DNA of 22,138 nt, taken from IMG/VR virus record IMGVR_UViG_3300045988_101675. The stretch is one strand, 5' to 3'. The notes beneath the pieces were generated by a model. The model had not been told where the DNA came from, made no database searches, and was given only the letters and a program-made list of their open reading frames with translations. Position 1 is the first letter of the stretch. Each line of letters opens with the position of its first letter. The translations under genes and the position numbers were made by a program. Positions 3,683 through 9,972 of the stretch are shown here, piece after piece. The stretch is from a virus (lineage: Duplodnaviria > Heunggongvirae > Uroviricota > Caudoviricetes).

Positions 3683-3954
3683 GCATTCGTATTGAAATTG
3701 GCGAACGTTATGTGGTTACCAGTGACAGCTTCCAGTTTATTCTCCACGAGAAAAAGAGAGCGGAAAGCGGTAAAAACGCCGGTCAGGAGTGGCTGGCGGT
3801 GGTTGGTTATTACCCGAAATTAAGCCAGCTCGTTTCCGGCCTGATGCATCACGATATTCTGACCGGAAGCGCAAAATCTTTTGCCGATTTAAACGCGCAG
3901 GTTGAGCAACTCAGCAAGCGTTGCTCAGAGGCTTTTGGCTCACATGGCCGTTAA
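3679..3954 (+). CDS. Hypothetical early protein (91 aa)
   Basis: ORF in the early operon. Its 3' end overlaps the A start by 11 nt. Confidence 0.6.
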   Translation: MSIRIEIGERYVVTSDSFQFILHEKKRAESGKNAGQEWLAVVGYYPKLSQLVSGLMHHDILTGSAKSFADLNAQVEQLSKRCSEAFGSHGR

Positions 3955-6229
3955 AGCCTCCGGGCGTTTTGTCCCTCCGTCAGCATTTGCCGCAGGCACC
4001 GGTAAGGCGTTTACCGGTGCTTATGCATGGAACGCGCCACGCGAGGCCGTCGGGCGCGAAAGACCCCTTACACGTGACGAGATGCGTCAGGTGCAAGGTG
4101 TTTTATCCACGATTAACCGCCTGCCTTACTTTTTGCGCTCGCTGTTTACTTCACGCTATGACTACATCCGGCGCAATAAAAGCCCGGTGCACGGGTTTTA
4201 TTTCCTCACATCCACTTTTCAGCGTCGTTTATGGCCGCGCATTGAGCGTGTGAATCAGCGCCATGAAATGAACACCGACGCGTCGTTACTGTTTCTGGCA
4301 GAGCGTGACCACTATGCGCGCCTGCCGGGAATGAATGACAAGGAGCTGAAAAAGTTTGCCGCCTGTATCTCATCGCAGCTTTTCATGATGTATGAGGAAC
4401 TCAGCGATGCCTGGGTGGATGCACATGGCGAAAAAGAATCGCTGTTTACGGATGAGGCGCAGGATCACCTCTATGGTCATGTTGCTGGCGCTGCACGTGC
4501 TTTCAATATTTCCCCGCTTTACTGGAAAAAATACCGTAAAGGACAGATGACCACGAGGCAGGCATATTCTGCCATTGCCCGCCTGTTTAACGATGAGTGG
4601 TGGACCCATCAGCTTAAAGGCCAGCGTATGCGCTGGCATGAGGCGTTACTGATTGCTGTCGGGGAGGTCAATAAAGACCGTTCTCCTTATGCCAGTAAAC
4701 ATGCCATTCGTGATGTGCGTGCGCGCCGCCAGGCAAATCTGGAATTTCTTAAATCGTGTGACCTTGAAAACAGAGAAACCGGCGAGCGTATCGACCTTAT
4801 CAGTAAGGTGATGGGCAGTATTTCTAATCCTGAAATTCGCCGGATGGAGCTGATGAACACCATTGCCGGTATTGAGCGTTACGCCGCCGCAGAGGGTGAT
4901 GTGGGGATGTTTATCACGCTGACCGCGCCGTCAAAGTATCACCCGACACGTCAGGTCGGAAAAGGCGAAAGTAAAACCGTCCAGCTAAATCACGGCTGGA
5001 ACGATGAGGCATTTAATCCAAAGGATGCGCAGCGTTATCTCTGCCGTATCTGGAGCCTGATGCGTACGGCATTCAAGGATAATGATTTACAGGTCTACGG
5101 TTTGCGTGTCGTCGAGCCACACCACGACGGAACACCGCACTGGCATATGATGCTTTTTTGTAATCCACGCCAGCGTAACCAGATTATCGAAATCATGCGT
5201 CGCTATGCGCTCAAAGAGGATGGCGACGAAAGAGGAGCCGCGCGAAACCGTTTTCAGGCAAAACACCTTAACCGGGGCGGTGCTGCGGGATATATCGCTA
5301 AATACATCTCAAAAAATATCGACGGCTATGCACTGGATGGTCAGCTCGATAACGATACCGGCAGGCCGCTTAAAGATACTGCCGCGGCTGTTACCGCATG
5401 GGCGTCAACGTGGCGCATCCCGCAATTTAAAACGGTTGGTCTGCCGACAATGGGGGCTTACCGTGAACTACGCAAATTGCCTCGTGGCGTCAGCATTGCT
5501 GATGAGTTTGACGAACGCGTCGAGGCTGCACGCGCCGCCGCAGACAGTGGTGATTTTGCGTTGTATATCAGCGCGCAGGGTGGGGCAAATGTTCCGCGCG
5601 ATTGTCAGACTGTCAGGGTTGCCCGTAGCCCGTCGGATGACGTTAACGAGTACGAGGAAGAAGTCGAGAGAGTGGTCGGCATTTACGCGCCGCATCTCGG
5701 CGCGCGTCATATTCATATCACCAGAACGACGGACTGGCGCATTGTGCCGAAAGTGCCGGTCGTTGAGCCTTTGACTTTAAAAAGCGGCATCGCCGCGCCT
5801 CGGAGTCCTGTCAATAACTGTGGAAAACTCACCGGTGGTGATACTTCGTTACCGGCTCCCACACCTTCTGAGCACGCCGCAGCAGTGCTTAATCTGGTTG
5901 ATGACGGTGTTATTGAATGGAATGAACCGGAGGTCGTGAGGGCGCTCAGGGGCGCATTAAAACACGACCTGCGAACGCCAAACCGTCAGCAAAGAAACGG
6001 AAGCCCGTTAAAACCACATGAAATTGCACCATCGGCCAGACTGACCCGGTCGGAAAGAATGCAAATTACCCGTATCCGCGTTGACCTTGCTCAGAACGGT
6101 ATCAGGCCGCAGCGATGGGAGCTTGAGGCGCTGGCGCGTGGCGCGACCGTAAATTATGACGGGAAAAAATTCACGTATCCGGTCGCTGATGAGTGGCCGG
6201 GATTCTCAACAGTAATGGAGTGGAAATGA
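3944..6229 (+). CDS. A: Rolling-circle replication initiation endonuclease gpA (HUH superfamily)
   Basis: Track ORF begins at TTG 3902; trimmed to ATG 3944 (MAVKASGRFVPP...), giving 761 aa, the P2 A length as I recall it. Contains the HUH-like PHWHMMLF motif and the two-tyrosine active-site segment GYIAKYISKNIDGY. Confidence 0.93.
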   Translation: MAVKASGRFVPPSAFAAGTGKAFTGAYAWNAPREAVGRERPLTRDEMRQVQGVLSTINRLPYFLRSLFTSRYDYIRRNKSPVHGFYFLTSTFQRRLWPRIERVNQRHEMNTDASLLFLAERDHYARLPGMNDKELKKFAACISSQLFMMYEELSDAWVDAHGEKESLFTDEAQDHLYGHVAGAARAFNISPLYWKKYRKGQMTTRQAYSAIARLFNDEWWTHQLKGQRMRWHEALLIAVGEVNKDRSPYASKHAIRDVRARRQANLEFLKSCDLENRETGERIDLISKVMGSISNPEIRRMELMNTIAGIERYAAAEGDVGMFITLTAPSKYHPTRQVGKGESKTVQLNHGWNDEAFNPKDAQRYLCRIWSLMRTAFKDNDLQVYGLRVVEPHHDGTPHWHMMLFCNPRQRNQIIEIMRRYALKEDGDERGAARNRFQAKHLNRGGAAGYIAKYISKNIDGYALDGQLDNDTGRPLKDTAAAVTAWASTWRIPQFKTVGLPTMGAYRELRKLPRGVSIADEFDERVEAARAAADSGDFALYISAQGGANVPRDCQTVRVARSPSDDVNEYEEEVERVVGIYAPHLGARHIHITRTTDWRIVPKVPVVEPLTLKSGIAAPRSPVNNCGKLTGGDTSLPAPTPSEHAAAVLNLVDDGVIEWNEPEVVRALRGALKHDLRTPNRQQRNGSPLKPHEIAPSARLTRSERMQITRIRVDLAQNGIRPQRWELEALARGATVNYDGKKFTYPVADEWPGFSTVMEWK

Positions 6230-6681
6230 TGGCAAAAATTCACGAGGTAAAGCTGCACGCAAAATATTTTGACCTTGTGCTGGAAGGAAAGAAACGCGCA
6301 GAGTTTCGGAAAAATGACCGTAATTATGAGCGCGGGGACACATTGATTTTGCATGAATGGGTGCAGGGTGTGTTTACGGGGCGAAAGGTTGAAGCCCGGA
6401 TAACAGATGTTACTGACCTGTCAGACTGGCTGGAAGATTATGTCTTGCTAAGTATTGAGCTGCTTAATACGGGCGCATATAAGATTGTGAACTGGAAAGA
6501 ACTTAGTGAGCGTGGCCTGGTATTCAGAATTAATCATGAAATTATGCATCAGCTCGGCCTTGCTGTTATGTATGAACCAGAGACGGGGATGTCTGGCGGG
6601 GCAATGGTTGCCACGGATGGAGTATGGAACTATTCAGATGAACAGATGGAGCGTGCACAGCAAAACGGGTGGCTCGGATAA
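6226..6681 (+). CDS. ASCH/DUF3850-like domain protein with a C-terminal extension
   Basis: 151 aa. The N-terminus (EVKLHAKYFDLVLEGKKRAEFRKNDRNYERGDTLILHEW) resembles ASCH/DUF3850 domains as I know them. GGAG lies 5 nt upstream. The start overlaps the A stop, suggesting translational coupling. Confidence 0.7.
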   Translation: MMAKIHEVKLHAKYFDLVLEGKKRAEFRKNDRNYERGDTLILHEWVQGVFTGRKVEARITDVTDLSDWLEDYVLLSIELLNTGAYKIVNWKELSERGLVFRINHEIMHQLGLAVMYEPETGMSGGAMVATDGVWNYSDEQMERAQQNGWLG

Positions 6682-6735
6682 TGCACAGAATACCAGGCGA
6701 GATACCGCACCATAAAAACTAAAAATATCAAGCTG

Positions 6736-6894
6736 ATGGCCATTGTTCACCGTCTACAGCAGATTATGGTCAACGAAAATCTGACGCCCGATGAACTAGT
6801 CGGGTGTGCCGAAATAGTCCGGGATAATTACGGGCGACTTAACTATATCGGTATCGGTCAGTCCAGAGTTGCGCCACCACCACGCAGACGATAG
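6736..6894 (+). CDS. Possible small ORF (52 aa)
   Basis: ATG-initiated ORF read by hand, below the 60-aa track cutoff, ending 5 nt before repeat copy 1. No clear Shine-Dalgarno sequence. Confidence 0.25.
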   Translation: MAIVHRLQQIMVNENLTPDELVGCAEIVRDNYGRLNYIGIGQSRVAPPPRRR

Positions 6895-6898
6895 AGAA

Positions 6899-6965
6899 CG
6901 CCGCCAGTCGTGAAACTTGTTTTCAGGGCTGGCGGCGTTGAACAACGAGCGAAGCGAGGCGTTAG
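6899..6965 (+). repeat. Copy 1 of a 67-nt repeat: 39-nt GC-clamped stem-loop (6899-6937) plus a 28-nt tail ending GCGTTAG
   Basis: CGCCGCCAGTCGTGAAA / CTTGT / TTTCAGGGCTGGCGGCG forms a stem of about 17 bp. About 82% identical to copy 2. Lies at the left boundary of the AT-rich insert. Confidence 0.65.
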
Positions 6966-7123
6966 TTGACAGTCATATTTTTACTGCGTTGGTGCTGGTT
7001 TTTGACGGTTGAAAGGAGTTAGCCAGGAGAGCAAAAGCCAACAACTTACAAATATTCAAAAGTAAGCTTCCTGTTGCTAACATAAGGTCGATTTTTTATG
7101 TGGATGATGCAAAAAGGATAGCT

Positions 7124-7855
7124 ATGGATATTGTAATCGCTTTTCTATCACTCGCTTTTTTCGTTGCTTTTTTCATCGGGTTAATCAAGCCATCACTGGT
7201 GCGGATGCCAAACCGTAAACGTGCAAGTGCGGTTTATCTCGGAGGTAGTTTTGCATTGAGCATAATTGGTTCAATACTCTACCCAACAGAAAAAAGCCAG
7301 CCAGTTGCTAAAACTGAAACAGCAACCGTAGCAGAACACCAGGCTCAAAAAACATTCGAATATACTGAAAAAACACTCAAGGAATATCGGAACGAGCCAA
7401 AGAAGACGCGACACGATATTGTGAATAGTTACATTAACTTTAAGAAAGTGCCAGTCACCGCATCAGATGCATTTTATGCCTGCATGAGTGAGTATACATT
7501 TACCAAAGATGATGAGTTGAAACTCGGTGATGTTCTTGGGTGGTGCTTTAATGATTATGAAAATGACCCGAATTCATTAAACAATAAAATCAATCTTGAT
7601 ACATTTCAGAGTAATTTTAGTGGTTGGGATGGTTCTTATCGGCCATTGGAAAAATTAATTAAAGATAATATGAACGATGATTCATCTTATAAACATGTGT
7701 CAACGGTATATCATTTGGTTTTGAATAAAGACCCGCACGCCATTGTGAAAACCACGTTTCGCGGCACTAATGCTTATGGTGGAGTGGTAAAGCAGACCGT
7801 AGCGGCGCGCGTCAACGTGCGAACGGGTGAGGTCGATTCGATACTCGACAATTAA
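7124..7855 (+). CDS. Accessory membrane protein of unknown function: two predicted N-terminal TM helices and a ~180-aa C-terminal domain
   Basis: Track ORF begins at GTG 7100; ATG 7124 has AAGGA 5 nt upstream. Hydrophobic segments IVIAFLSLAFFVAFFIGLI and AVYLGGSFALSIIGSILY. AT-rich, unlike the backbone. No recognisable motif. Confidence 0.7.
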   Translation: MDIVIAFLSLAFFVAFFIGLIKPSLVRMPNRKRASAVYLGGSFALSIIGSILYPTEKSQPVAKTETATVAEHQAQKTFEYTEKTLKEYRNEPKKTRHDIVNSYINFKKVPVTASDAFYACMSEYTFTKDDELKLGDVLGWCFNDYENDPNSLNNKINLDTFQSNFSGWDGSYRPLEKLIKDNMNDDSSYKHVSTVYHLVLNKDPHAIVKTTFRGTNAYGGVVKQTVAARVNVRTGEVDSILDN

Positions 7856-7871
7856 ACAATATAGTGACATA

Positions 7872-7938
7872 CCCCGCCAGTACTGAAACTTGTTTTCAGT
7901 GCTGGCGGGGTTAAACAAAGAGCATCGTGAAGCGTTAG
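7872..7938 (+). repeat. Copy 2 of the 67-nt repeat: stem-loop (7872-7910) plus tail
   Basis: CCCCGCCAGTACTGAAA / CTTGT / TTTCAGTGCTGGCGGGG. Same architecture as copy 1, with the second stem base pair swapped from G-C to C-G. Lies between the two accessory genes. Confidence 0.65.
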
Positions 7939-7963
7939 ATTAAAATCATTTGAGGCAGATAAA

Positions 7964-8626
7964 ATGCTTTGGAAAATAATTTCTTTTTTATTAGTTGGTA
8001 TTTGTATGTTTGCTTTCGGTTTATGGTTAGGCTCTATTCAGGCTGAATGGGCGAAACCAGAGCATAAAGATGCTGTTGCTTATTTAGCAATGATCGGAGG
8101 ATGGGTCTCAGGAATTGCAACGTCAGTCGCAGTAATTATTTCATTGTATGCGACATATCAAGCATCACAGAATAATGTTGAAAAATTAAGTTTAACCTAT
8201 AAGCCTTACTCTAGCGTAGACAAAGAAAATTATTGTGCCAATATTGAGGTTGTAAATTTGCGGAGCGTTCCGGTACATATACAAGAGTTTTGCTTAGAAT
8301 TTAGTGGGATAAATAATCATTTCAACATAAACGAACTAAAAGCAAATGGGAAGGAGATACCGTATTCTTTATACCAAGTAGGAGAGAAATGGGAGTTTGC
8401 CTTCTATCCTTTTGCAAAGCTGGGAAATATGAGGTTCTATAAAAGCTTAAGTGAGAATGGTAATCCAAGTTTTCGTAGTGGTTTCTTTGTGGTTAAAACA
8501 TCAATGAAACAATACAAATTAAGGATACCTAATGAGCTTTTGGAAATTATGAAAATTAGCTATGAAAAGCAAATGGAAATACGGAAGAATTATAAGGAAA
8601 TGCATGGTAAAGAGATGGGCTTTTAA
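7964..8626 (+). CDS. Accessory membrane protein of unknown function: two predicted N-terminal TM helices and a ~150-aa C-terminal domain
   Basis: 220-aa ORF with GAGG 8 nt upstream of the ATG. Hydrophobic segments IISFLLVGICMFAFGLWLG and VAYLAMIGGWVSGIATSVAVIISLY. Very AT-rich. Last gene before cos. Confidence 0.7.
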   Translation: MLWKIISFLLVGICMFAFGLWLGSIQAEWAKPEHKDAVAYLAMIGGWVSGIATSVAVIISLYATYQASQNNVEKLSLTYKPYSSVDKENYCANIEVVNLRSVPVHIQEFCLEFSGINNHFNINELKANGKEIPYSLYQVGEKWEFAFYPFAKLGNMRFYKSLSENGNPSFRSGFFVVKTSMKQYKLRIPNELLEIMKISYEKQMEIRKNYKEMHGKEMGF

Positions 8627-8749
8627 AACGCATTAACAAGCATCAAATTGCATGCGCATCCCTCCCCTGTTGTGTTTGAGCGCTGCCAGTGATGGTGTGC
8701 CTCTGGCGTGTTCGTGCAACTGCATTAAAACCGCCCCATGAAGCGGGCG

Positions 8750-8768
8750 GGCGAGGCGGGGAAAGCAC
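8750..8768. other. cos site: 19-nt cohesive-end sequence GGCGAGGCGGGGAAAGCAC
   Basis: Matches the P2 cohesive-end sequence as I remember it. Located between the accessory region and gene Q, as in P2. A 6-bp GC dyad (CCGCCC ... GGGCGG, 8731-8750) abuts its left edge. Confidence 0.75.
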
Positions 8769-8937
8769 TGCGCGCTGGCGGTGGTGCTGATTTTATTTTT
8801 TCAGCGTCTGAGCGCGTCTTGATGGCGTTTAGATTGTGCGCCGGGGCGTTGGTGTGTCTGCGGGGTGTTTTGTGCGGTGGTGAGCGTGTGAGGGCGTGAT
8901 GACGGGGTGTAAAAAAGCCGCCCGCAGGCGGCGATGT

Positions 8938-9972
8938 TCAGCCGTTGTCAGTGTCCAGTGAGTAGTTTTTAAAGCGGATGACCTCCTGGCCGAGCCAGCC
9001 GTTTATTTCCCGAATCCTGTCCTGTAGCGGGATAAGCTCATTGCGGACAAAGACCTTTGCCACTTTCTCAATATCACCCAGAGACCCGACGTTCTCCGGC
9101 TTGCCGCCCATCAACTGAAAGGGGATGCGGTGCGCGTCCAGCAGGTCAGCGGCGCTGGCTTTTTTGATATTAAAAAAATCGTCCTTCGTCGCCACTTCAC
9201 TGAGGGGGATAATTTTAATGCCGTCGGCTTTCCCCTGTGGGGCATAGAGAAACAGGTTTTTAAAGTTGTTGCGGCCTTTCGACTTGACCATGTTTTCGCG
9301 AAGCATTTCGATATCGTTGCGATCCTGCACGGCATCAGTGACGTACATGATGTATCCGGCATGAGCGCCGTTTTCGTAATACTTGCGGCGGAACAGCGTA
9401 GCTGATTCATTCAGCCAGGCAGAATTAAGGGCGCTGAGATATTCCGGCAGGCCGTACAGCTCCTGATTAATATCCGGCTCCAGCAGGTGAAACACGGAGC
9501 CGGGCGCGAAAGGTGTCGGCTCGTTGAAGGACGGCACCCACCAGTAAACATCCTCCTCAACACCACGGCGGGTATATTTTGCCGGTGAGGTTTCCAGTCT
9601 GATGACCTTACCGGTGGTGCTGTAGCGCTTTTCCAGAAACGCATTACCGAACACCAGAAAATCCAGCACAAAGCGGCTGAAATCCTGCTGGGAAAGCCAC
9701 GGGTGCGGAATAAACGTTGAAGCCAGAATATTACGTTTGACGTAAATCGGTGAGCTGTGATGTACGGCAGCACGCAGGCTTTTTGCCAGACCGGTAAAGC
9801 TGACCGGTGGCTCATACCATCTGCCGTTACTGATGCACTCGACGTAATCCAGAATGTCACGGCGGTCGAGTACCGGCACCGGCTCACCAAAGGTGAATGC
9901 CTCCATTTTCGGGGCGCTGGCGGTGATTGTTTTTGCCGCAGGTTGCGGTGTTTTCCCTTTTTTCTTGCTCAT
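8938..9972 (-). CDS. Q: Portal protein gpQ
   Basis: 344 aa, the P2 Q length as I recall it. First gene after cos, co-oriented with the large terminase, with a 1-nt overlap between the P stop and Q start. Confidence 0.93.
   Translation of the reverse strand: MSKKKGKTPQPAAKTITASAPKMEAFTFGEPVPVLDRRDILDYVECISNGRWYEPPVSFTGLAKSLRAAVHHSSPIYVKRNILASTFIPHPWLSQQDFSRFVLDFLVFGNAFLEKRYSTTGKVIRLETSPAKYTRRGVEEDVYWWVPSFNEPTPFAPGSVFHLLEPDINQELYGLPEYLSALNSAWLNESATLFRRKYYENGAHAGYIMYVTDAVQDRNDIEMLRENMVKSKGRNNFKNLFLYAPQGKADGIKIIPLSEVATKDDFFNIKKASAADLLDAHRIPFQLMGGKPENVGSLGDIEKVAKVFVRNELIPLQDRIREINGWLGQEVIRFKNYSLDTDNG

Follow-up and report, generated by a model that had tools for sequence, protein, structure and literature searches.

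The DNA that fills the slot between gene A and cos in the P2-like genome analysed here is, as our results partly support, a plausible phage-exclusion locus; it cannot count as undescribed, and its two genes do not form a fixed module. In the window, i.e. the whole 22,138-nucleotide stretch of DNA that was analysed, this slot contains a member of the Orf97 family of coliphage 186 (gene 1) followed by a member of a second, unrelated family of membrane proteins (gene 2). On balance, we consider it somewhat more likely than not that these are two independent exclusion-type cassettes, with Orf97 facing the periplasm and serving in superinfection exclusion and the gene 2 protein tethered to the membrane with a cytoplasmic domain, possibly as an abortive-infection type protein.

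The A-to-cos slot and its borders

The backbone of the window is that of a P2-like prophage, as the first-pass annotation had recognized. A stretch of 96.6% identity is found in E. coli SCAID URN1-2021, where the annotated order is int, HTH repressor (C), Cox, replication endonuclease (A), a DUF3850 protein, a small hypothetical and two hypotheticals, followed by portal (Q), terminase (P), scaffold (O), capsid (N) and terminase small subunit (M). The main features of the region in the window are as follows.

3902-6229: gpA
6193-6681: DUF3850/ASCH+DUF7415 ORF
6736-6894: ORF of 52 aa
6896-6965, plus strand: boundary element copy 1, a 19-bp hairpin (arms 6897-6915 and 6921-6939) with a conserved tail ending in GCGTTAG
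7124-7855, plus strand: gene 1, Orf97-family protein of 243 aa counted from the ATG, assigned by similarity to phrog_3403 and 186 orf97
7869-7938, plus strand: boundary element copy 2 (hairpin arms 7871-7888 and 7894-7911), 80% identical to copy 1
7964-8626, plus strand: gene 2, 220-aa protein of the uncharacterised family phrog_16957
8750-8768, plus strand: P2-type cos 19-mer GGCGAGGCGGGGAAAGCAC, exact match, on the right side of the hotspot
From 8938, minus strand: Q and P

Alignability with P2, Wphi and other relatives is lost at 6965-6967 (megablast), and backbone similarity is regained between ~8640 and 8712 (megablast of 8560-8960). Thus, the borders previously proposed for an insert in this interval, 6966-8630, coincide almost to the base with the variable slot that separates gene A from cos. 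The GC content is 37.7% over 6966-8630 (40.2% in gene 1 and 34.4% in gene 2) versus 53-57% in the flanking backbone (53.4% in gpA, 52.9% in Q and 57.4% in P), which bears out the description of the insert as AT-rich. The two co-oriented ORFs are also real genes, because both are under purifying selection (dN/dS of 0.11 for gene 1 and 0.32 for gene 2); Shine-Dalgarno sequences precede both. Both genes are AT-rich morons in the A-to-cos hotspot. When this interval was compared across P2-like loci, its content proved to be variable, as had been anticipated. P2 itself carries the prophage exclusion genes tin and old in the same slot; their proteins are unrelated to those of genes 1 and 2, and P2 homology stops at the boundary element.

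The statement that neither protein could be assigned to a family holds for Pfam, NCBIfam and PADLOC, in which scans found no matching family, but each protein belongs to a phage protein cluster, gene 1 to phrog_3403 and gene 2 to phrog_16957. No defence-protein model of PADLOC-DB v2 was matched by either protein at E-values up to 1, profile searches of PDB sequences with both proteins returned nothing, and both are absent from the supplements of Vassallo et al. 2022. Structure models were obtained for both proteins as had been suggested, and Foldseek searches of BFVD yielded nothing but uncharacterised phage proteins, at TM-scores around 0.3. The fold and sequence searches together found a functional analogue for neither protein. 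An Rfam scan of 6600-9000 gave a single sub-threshold chance match.

Gene 1 is a member of the Orf97 family

The predicted layout of the gene 1 protein is as follows.

7130-7186 (residues 3-21): first transmembrane helix (TM1), followed by a basic loop predicted to be cytoplasmic
7214-7279 (residues about 31-52): second transmembrane helix (TM2)
Residues 55-77: disordered linker
7355-7852 (residues 78-243): folded domain predicted to be periplasmic

By sequence similarity, gene 1 is a member of the coliphage 186 Orf97 family (phrog_3403). It matches phrog_3403 with an E-value of 4.6e-145 over residues 9-251 of the 251-aa ORF, and the ATG start that gives 243 aa is backed by the family start and a Shine-Dalgarno sequence. 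The identity to 186 orf97 is 77% at the nucleotide level (megablast) and 80% at the amino acid level. The traits of the family in a 34-member alignment are all present, namely two N-terminal TM helices, a basic loop and the C-terminal motifs FSGWDGSYRPLEK and FRGTNAYGG, and so is the placement of the family in P2/186-like phages, with the replication gene (or tum) on one side and cos on the other. C120 and C141 are invariant in the same alignment. The AlphaFold2 model of gene 1 has a pLDDT of 83. The helical subdomain of Orf97 weakly resembles the acid-stress chaperones HdeA and HdeB.

Among 113 family members, the mean number of lysine and arginine residues is 0.04 in the N-terminal tail versus 4.71 in the TM1-TM2 loop; these counts predict a cytoplasmic loop and a periplasmic C-terminal domain. 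Two variant arrangements are consistent with an extracytoplasmic domain. In an Oxalobacter metagenome-assembled genome, the Orf97 domain lacks the TM hairpin and carries a lipoprotein signal (MKK...LAGC), and in Xenorhabdus it lies behind a Zn-ribbon and a single TM helix.

At orf97 (AAC34191), the GenBank record of 186 states 'expression from plasmid blocks 186 infection', which makes the exclusion role suggested by the first-pass annotation plausible. In that record, the SOS operon consists of p95 with a LexA site, tum, a partial terminator (t95a), orf97 and a terminator (t95b). The operon was described by Brumby et al. 1996, as cited in PMC5322425, and beyond this one citing paper our literature search found nothing on orf97. 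The family of gene 1 has thus been known since 1996, and the locus can no longer be called undescribed. The likeness between the gene 1 protein and 186 Orf97 extends from length (243 aa) and the two-TM-plus-domain layout to the position of the genes just before cos, with the same hairpin element after them. In contrast to 186, the window has a P2-type backbone in which no tum, p95 or DinI-family gene is present, the DUF3850/ASCH and 52-aa ORFs lie upstream of gene 1 instead, and a further cassette follows gene 1. A LexA-box search gave no match near 6900-7120, and its overall count was at chance. The control of gene 1 must therefore differ from that of 186 orf97.

Genes of both families have also been counted in the P2 hotspot. 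In Table S5B of Rousset et al. 2022 (PMC9122126), an Orf97-like protein that closely resembles gene 1 is entered as system #12 (210 occurrences, no Pfam, '2 TM'), and an S164-type relative of gene 2, about 30% identical to it, as system #30 (119 occurrences, '2 TM'). Both are unnamed, separate one-gene entries. Their sequences are absent from the tested-systems table of that study, and the word 'orf97' is absent from its main text. Our assignment ties the abundant system #12 to a 186 gene for which a block of infection is on record. About 232 of 5426 complete E. coli genomes (~4%) contain DNA that resembles the query region, mainly in its orf97 part. WP_001154434, a common 'hypothetical + DinI' neighbour in the Rousset table, was considered as a further Orf97; this is unlikely, because 186-orf97-like DNA was found by megablast in only 39 E. 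coli genomes, far below the frequency of this accession in the table.

From its homology, the annotated phenotype of plasmid-expressed 186 orf97 and the predicted topology, we read Orf97 as an exclusion protein. It would be an inner-membrane protein with its N-terminus out and its basic loop in, displaying a folded, probably disulfide-bonded domain in the periplasm. Orf97 most likely stops incoming phages of the P2/186 type, and perhaps others, at the envelope or DNA-entry step. The working model is provided by T4 Imm and Sp, P22 SieA, P1 Sim and HK97 gp15, small proteins of the inner membrane or periplasm, encoded by phages, that halt the DNA of incoming phages. The predicted periplasmic location of the active domain makes a block at entry directly testable.

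It is unlikely, in our judgement, that Orf97 instead perturbs the membrane and arrests or kills the cell through abortive infection or toxicity, that the block of 186 is a consequence of this and that the gene 2 protein acts likewise. Such an activity would fit a phenotype that came from plasmid expression, the LexA repression of 186 orf97 and its position behind a partial terminator, both expected of a harmful product, and the fact that both proteins are small membrane proteins; transmembrane proteins of known anti-phage systems are believed to be suicide effectors (Rousset et al., PMC9122126). However, Orf97 consists mostly of a well-folded soluble domain that is strongly conserved (dN/dS of 0.086), not of a minimal membrane peptide, and the existence of the lipoprotein form suggests that the TM hairpin is an anchor rather than an effector.

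Gene 2 belongs to a family of prophage accessory membrane proteins

The predicted layout of the gene 2 protein is as follows.

Residues 5-23 and about 38-62: conserved TM hairpin with the small-residue motif GGWVSGIATxxAVxxS
8186-8524 (residues 75-187): variable Ig-like beta-sandwich, predicted to be cytoplasmic
Residues 190-214: C-terminal helix

Gene 2 matches phrog_16957 with an E-value of 8.5e-69 and contains the signature of the family, which is the TM motif G-G-W-V-S-G-x-A-T-x-x-A-V followed by a beta-rich domain with G-E-x-W. TM2 is the best conserved part of the protein, and the beta domain is variable. An exhaustive search of 1.84 billion cluster representatives with the gene 2 profile yielded 112 matches at E <= 0.001 and 28 at E <= 1e-10. 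In Pfam at E-values up to 1, gene 1 retrieved no family and gene 2 only noise (DUF996 at E 0.03, Tetraspanin and DUF4830), and Pfam and PADLOC scans of 74 relatives gave no consistent match. The Pfam families of SieB, T4 Imm and S-2TMbeta were matched by neither gene 1 nor gene 2 nor the 74 relatives.

The orientation of the protein was assessed from 40 distant relatives with one TM helix. These have a short acidic N-terminal tail (K+R 0.62, D+E 2.15), and the 15 residues after the TM helix are strongly basic (K+R 3.62), a charge pattern that puts the beta domain on the cytoplasmic side. The two-TM forms, including gene 2, are predicted by homology to be N-in/C-in; their own charge bias is weak, and the placement is strong only for the one-TM relatives.

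The one-TM relatives are located in lambdoid prophages, between the lysis cassette and terminase. One two-TM relative is located on an element carrying Ogr/Delta and primase genes, and another is found in Enterobacter 186-like prophages after tum, Orf97 and an 85-aa ORF. These contexts indicate a moron family of phages and satellites rather than a speciality of P2. Gene 2 thus represents a small family of accessory membrane proteins, carried by P2-like and lambdoid prophages and by satellite elements, that is annotated in no database.

With its two-TM hairpin followed by a beta-rich soluble domain, gene 2 is laid out like P22 SieB and the CBASS effector Cap15 (S-2TMbeta), both of them abortive-infection proteins of the membrane in which a soluble domain follows two N-terminal TM helices. 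Judging from this anatomy and from the genomic context, gene 2 is most likely a separate, rapidly exchanged cassette with a second, independent anti-phage function, possibly of the abortive-infection type. The conserved two-helix hairpin, with its small-residue packing face, would tether the variable Ig-like domain in the cytoplasm, where the domain may recognise a phage product, and the hairpin itself would be the effector. A more ambitious version of this model, which we regard as rather improbable as a whole, is that gene 2 represents a new and widespread class of single-gene prophage defence in which a small-residue hairpin or helix effector is joined to a hypervariable cytoplasmic Ig-like sensor. 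The alleles would then be exchanged in the manner of specificity cassettes, downstream of a dedicated hairpin joint, with the boundary element as the recombination or docking site, and gene 2 would be layered behind periplasmic Orf97 as a two-tier barrier.

A hairpin element marks the cassette boundaries

Gene 1 is flanked by a 79-nt direct repeat of 80% identity (6898-6976 and 7871-7949), whose conserved core of about 70 nt ends in GCGTTAG at 6965 and 7938. Copy 1 of this element is the final backbone sequence ahead of the variable slot; up to about 6967, but no further, the sequence aligns at 92-97% with P2, Wphi and Yersinia P2-like phages. Sequence divergence starts immediately past GCGTTAG. 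Copy 2 ends 25 nt before the ATG of gene 2; homology to S164-type phages (query 1-1023) breaks off within this copy. The element forms a 19-bp hairpin (-34.7 kcal/mol) with compensatory changes: among 58 unique copies, 15 hairpin pairs are 90-100% paired, several of them with two or three pair types.

An nhmmer search found the element in 105 of 124 loci, in P2/186 contexts only. The 186-type phages have one copy, located 8-15 nt past the orf97 stop codon; in 186 itself, it sits unannotated between orf97 and t95b. In the P2-type phages, one copy follows the small ORF that precedes the slot, and a second copy follows orf97 where a gene 2 allele of the window type or the S164 type comes next. 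The words hairpin, terminator and stem-loop are absent from a 2026 NAR survey of P2/P4 hotspots.

Since P2- and 186-like genomes cease to align precisely at this element, it is a candidate for how hotspot cassettes are swapped. We read it as a marker of cassette boundaries and a candidate left joint for cassette exchange; each of the two cassettes follows one copy of about 70 nt, which would serve as the joint for recombination. The element may also act as RNA, for example in transcript 3'-end formation or stability.

Orf97 and gene 2 as probably independent cassettes

Both proteins have two N-terminal hydrophobic helices in hydropathy plots and AlphaFold2 models, so that this part of the shared architecture noted earlier is confirmed. 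The resemblance goes no further: an hhalign comparison of the two families gave a probability of 3%, indicating that they are not paralogues, and the predicted topologies are opposite, with the soluble domain of Orf97 in the periplasm and that of gene 2 in the cytoplasm.

The two genes had also been taken for one module, and the survey of loci speaks against this. In 78 usable IMG/VR loci, Orf97 is followed by a gene 2 relative in 20, by other unrelated ORFs in 42 and by no ORF in 16, the last group having nothing before the portal gene, as in 186. Among the products of the other ORFs are a 260-266-aa protein with a C-terminal TM helix, a PDC-S64-like protein and further proteins of 429, 311, 297 and 182 aa; nearly all are without a family. 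Conversely, Orf97 lies upstream in 10 of the 14 IMG/VR viral loci found via gene 2 and is absent in the other 4, where the gene 2 homologue directly follows the backbone. Orf97 on its own is thus the common state.

In phages S164, P24A7b, BIS20, P22H4/9W and PHB48, a protein 25-39% identical to gene 2 is encoded directly behind Orf97. These loci were initially read as a conserved gene with a diversifying partner, but the wider survey argues against an obligate system. In 28 unique combinations of Orf97 and gene 2, the mean identity was 85.8% for Orf97 and 41.9% for gene 2, with a correlation of r = 0.17, and in pairs of loci whose Orf97 proteins are at least 90% identical, gene 2 identity ranged from 23 to 100% (median 32%). 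This pattern indicates replacement of the gene 2 cassette rather than co-divergence. Neither the co-occurrence nor the co-variation of an obligate two-gene system is therefore observed. At the same time, Orf97 is enriched upstream of gene 2 (10 of 14 loci), also in several lineages whose alleles are only 25-40% identical to that of the window, and this exceeds the obvious expectation for independent cassettes.

This enrichment leaves a low probability for a single trans-envelope system, in which periplasmic Orf97 would sense or block the injecting phage and signal to the gene 2 protein, whose cytoplasmic domain or TM hairpin would respond. Of the surveyed loci, 40 have a gene 2 relative immediately after Orf97, and these span those several lineages and both tum-type and ASCH-type backbones; the two domains, predicted to lie on opposite sides of the membrane, would complement each other in such a system, and the intergenic gap is only about 110 nt without a canonical terminator. 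However, the GenBank note credits the block of infection to expression of orf97 from 186, a phage that lacks gene 2, and gene 2 is missing at 58 of the 78 Orf97 loci. The 4 gene 2 loci without Orf97, the replacement of gene 2 alleles with no matching change in Orf97, the strong hairpin between the two genes and the two separate one-gene entries of Rousset et al. with their different counts (210 and 119) point in the same direction. We therefore regard such a system as quite unlikely and retain the explanation that the insert consists of two single-gene accessory cassettes in the P2/186 A-to-cos slot, each probably with an exclusion-type function of its own.

A role in the phage cycle or the host instead of against phages, such as remodelling or protecting the envelope while SOS induction and lysis take place, a chaperone-like stress function in the periplasm or lysis timing, would agree with the co-induction of 186 orf97 and the antirepressor gene tum by DNA damage, the HdeA/HdeB resemblance, the position of one-TM gene 2 relatives right after lysis cassettes and the presence of non-defence cargo (e.g. 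a partition system) in about a quarter of P2 hotspots, but is improbable given that the sole recorded phenotype is a block of infection, that exclusion and defence genes (tin, old, retrons and others) dominate this slot in P2 relatives and that the high turnover of gene 2 alleles suits conflict better than housekeeping.

Expression signals

A promoter and terminator scan returned counts no higher than those of shuffled sequences and no convincing promoter before gene 1. One weak site was noted ahead of gene 2.

7838-7865, plus strand: sigma-70-like site TCGATA-16-TATAGT across the stop codon of gene 1 (9/12 matches in a consensus scan that gave no more sites than shuffles did)

This site would start a transcript at the hairpin of copy 2, and we regard it only as a lead. 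Many of the loci that have a downstream cassette carry the TATAGT insertion, but some lack it.

Boundary element at the edge of the variable slot

The exact left edge of the variable slot between A and cos in P2- and 186-like phages is marked by a conserved element of ~70 nt, which consists of a covarying 19-bp hairpin and a conserved tail with GCGTTAG as its last bases. In the window, orf97 (the homologue of the coliphage 186 gene) is flanked by duplicate copies of this element. The element carries no annotation in the 186 record.

Window 6896-6965: boundary element, copy 1
Window 7869-7938: boundary element, copy 2
Phage 186 (L002), about 4771-4840: boundary element
Window 6193-6681: ORF with DUF3850/ASCH and DUF7415, directly after gpA (replication protein A)
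Window 7838-7865: weak promoter-like site

The small phrog_11386 ORF (window 6736-6894; L008 2915-3124) moves together with the boundary element. It is located 5' of copy 1 in the window, upstream of orf97. Salmonella phage PHB48 instead carries it downstream of orf97, ahead of the homologue of gene 2 (the second gene of the slot). The DUF3850/ASCH ORF, the start of which overlaps the end of A, has a fold with an RNA-binding annotation and occupies the position held by the DinI-family gene tum in 186-type backbones.

Slot content behind orf97

Alternative cassettes were found behind orf97 in other loci.

L053, 4843-5625: alternative cassette
L052, 4753-5733: alternative cassette
L046, 4845-6134: alternative cassette
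L071, 1981-2916: alternative cassette
L102, 4843-5391: alternative cassette
L113, 4875-5768: alternative cassette

One of these, present in ~16 loci, encodes a protein of 260-266 aa with a C-terminal TM, and another encodes a protein of 311/326 aa that matches the PADLOC candidate PDC-S64 (E 1.6e-17). Further cassettes encode proteins of 429, 311, 182 and 297 aa. No Pfam family was assigned to any of these cassette proteins.

The promoter-like site is made by a TATAGT-containing insertion of ~7 nt located after the orf97 stop codon and before the boundary element. Many of the loci that have a cassette downstream contain this insertion, and it is missing in 186 and in most loci without one, although the correlation is imperfect. 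In E. coli bR_120_Kylling, an IS3-family element (L010 2782-4010) separates the boundary element from orf97, and the downstream pair of orf97 and gene 2 is otherwise intact.

Related proteins in other contexts

Distant one-TM relatives of gene 2 are present in lambdoid prophages (L124 6001-6531; L130 6001-6555), with lysis genes (lysozyme followed by DUF2514 or LysC) on one side and terminase genes on the other. This lysis-to-terminase interval is another classical moron position, here occupied by gene-2 relatives. The C-terminal domain of Orf97 was also found behind a Zn-ribbon and a single TM in Xenorhabdus (L026 4869-5618) and as a lipoprotein with a signal peptide ending in LAGC in an Oxalobacter MAG (L027 4941-5525), where two further small lipoprotein-like ORFs follow downstream.
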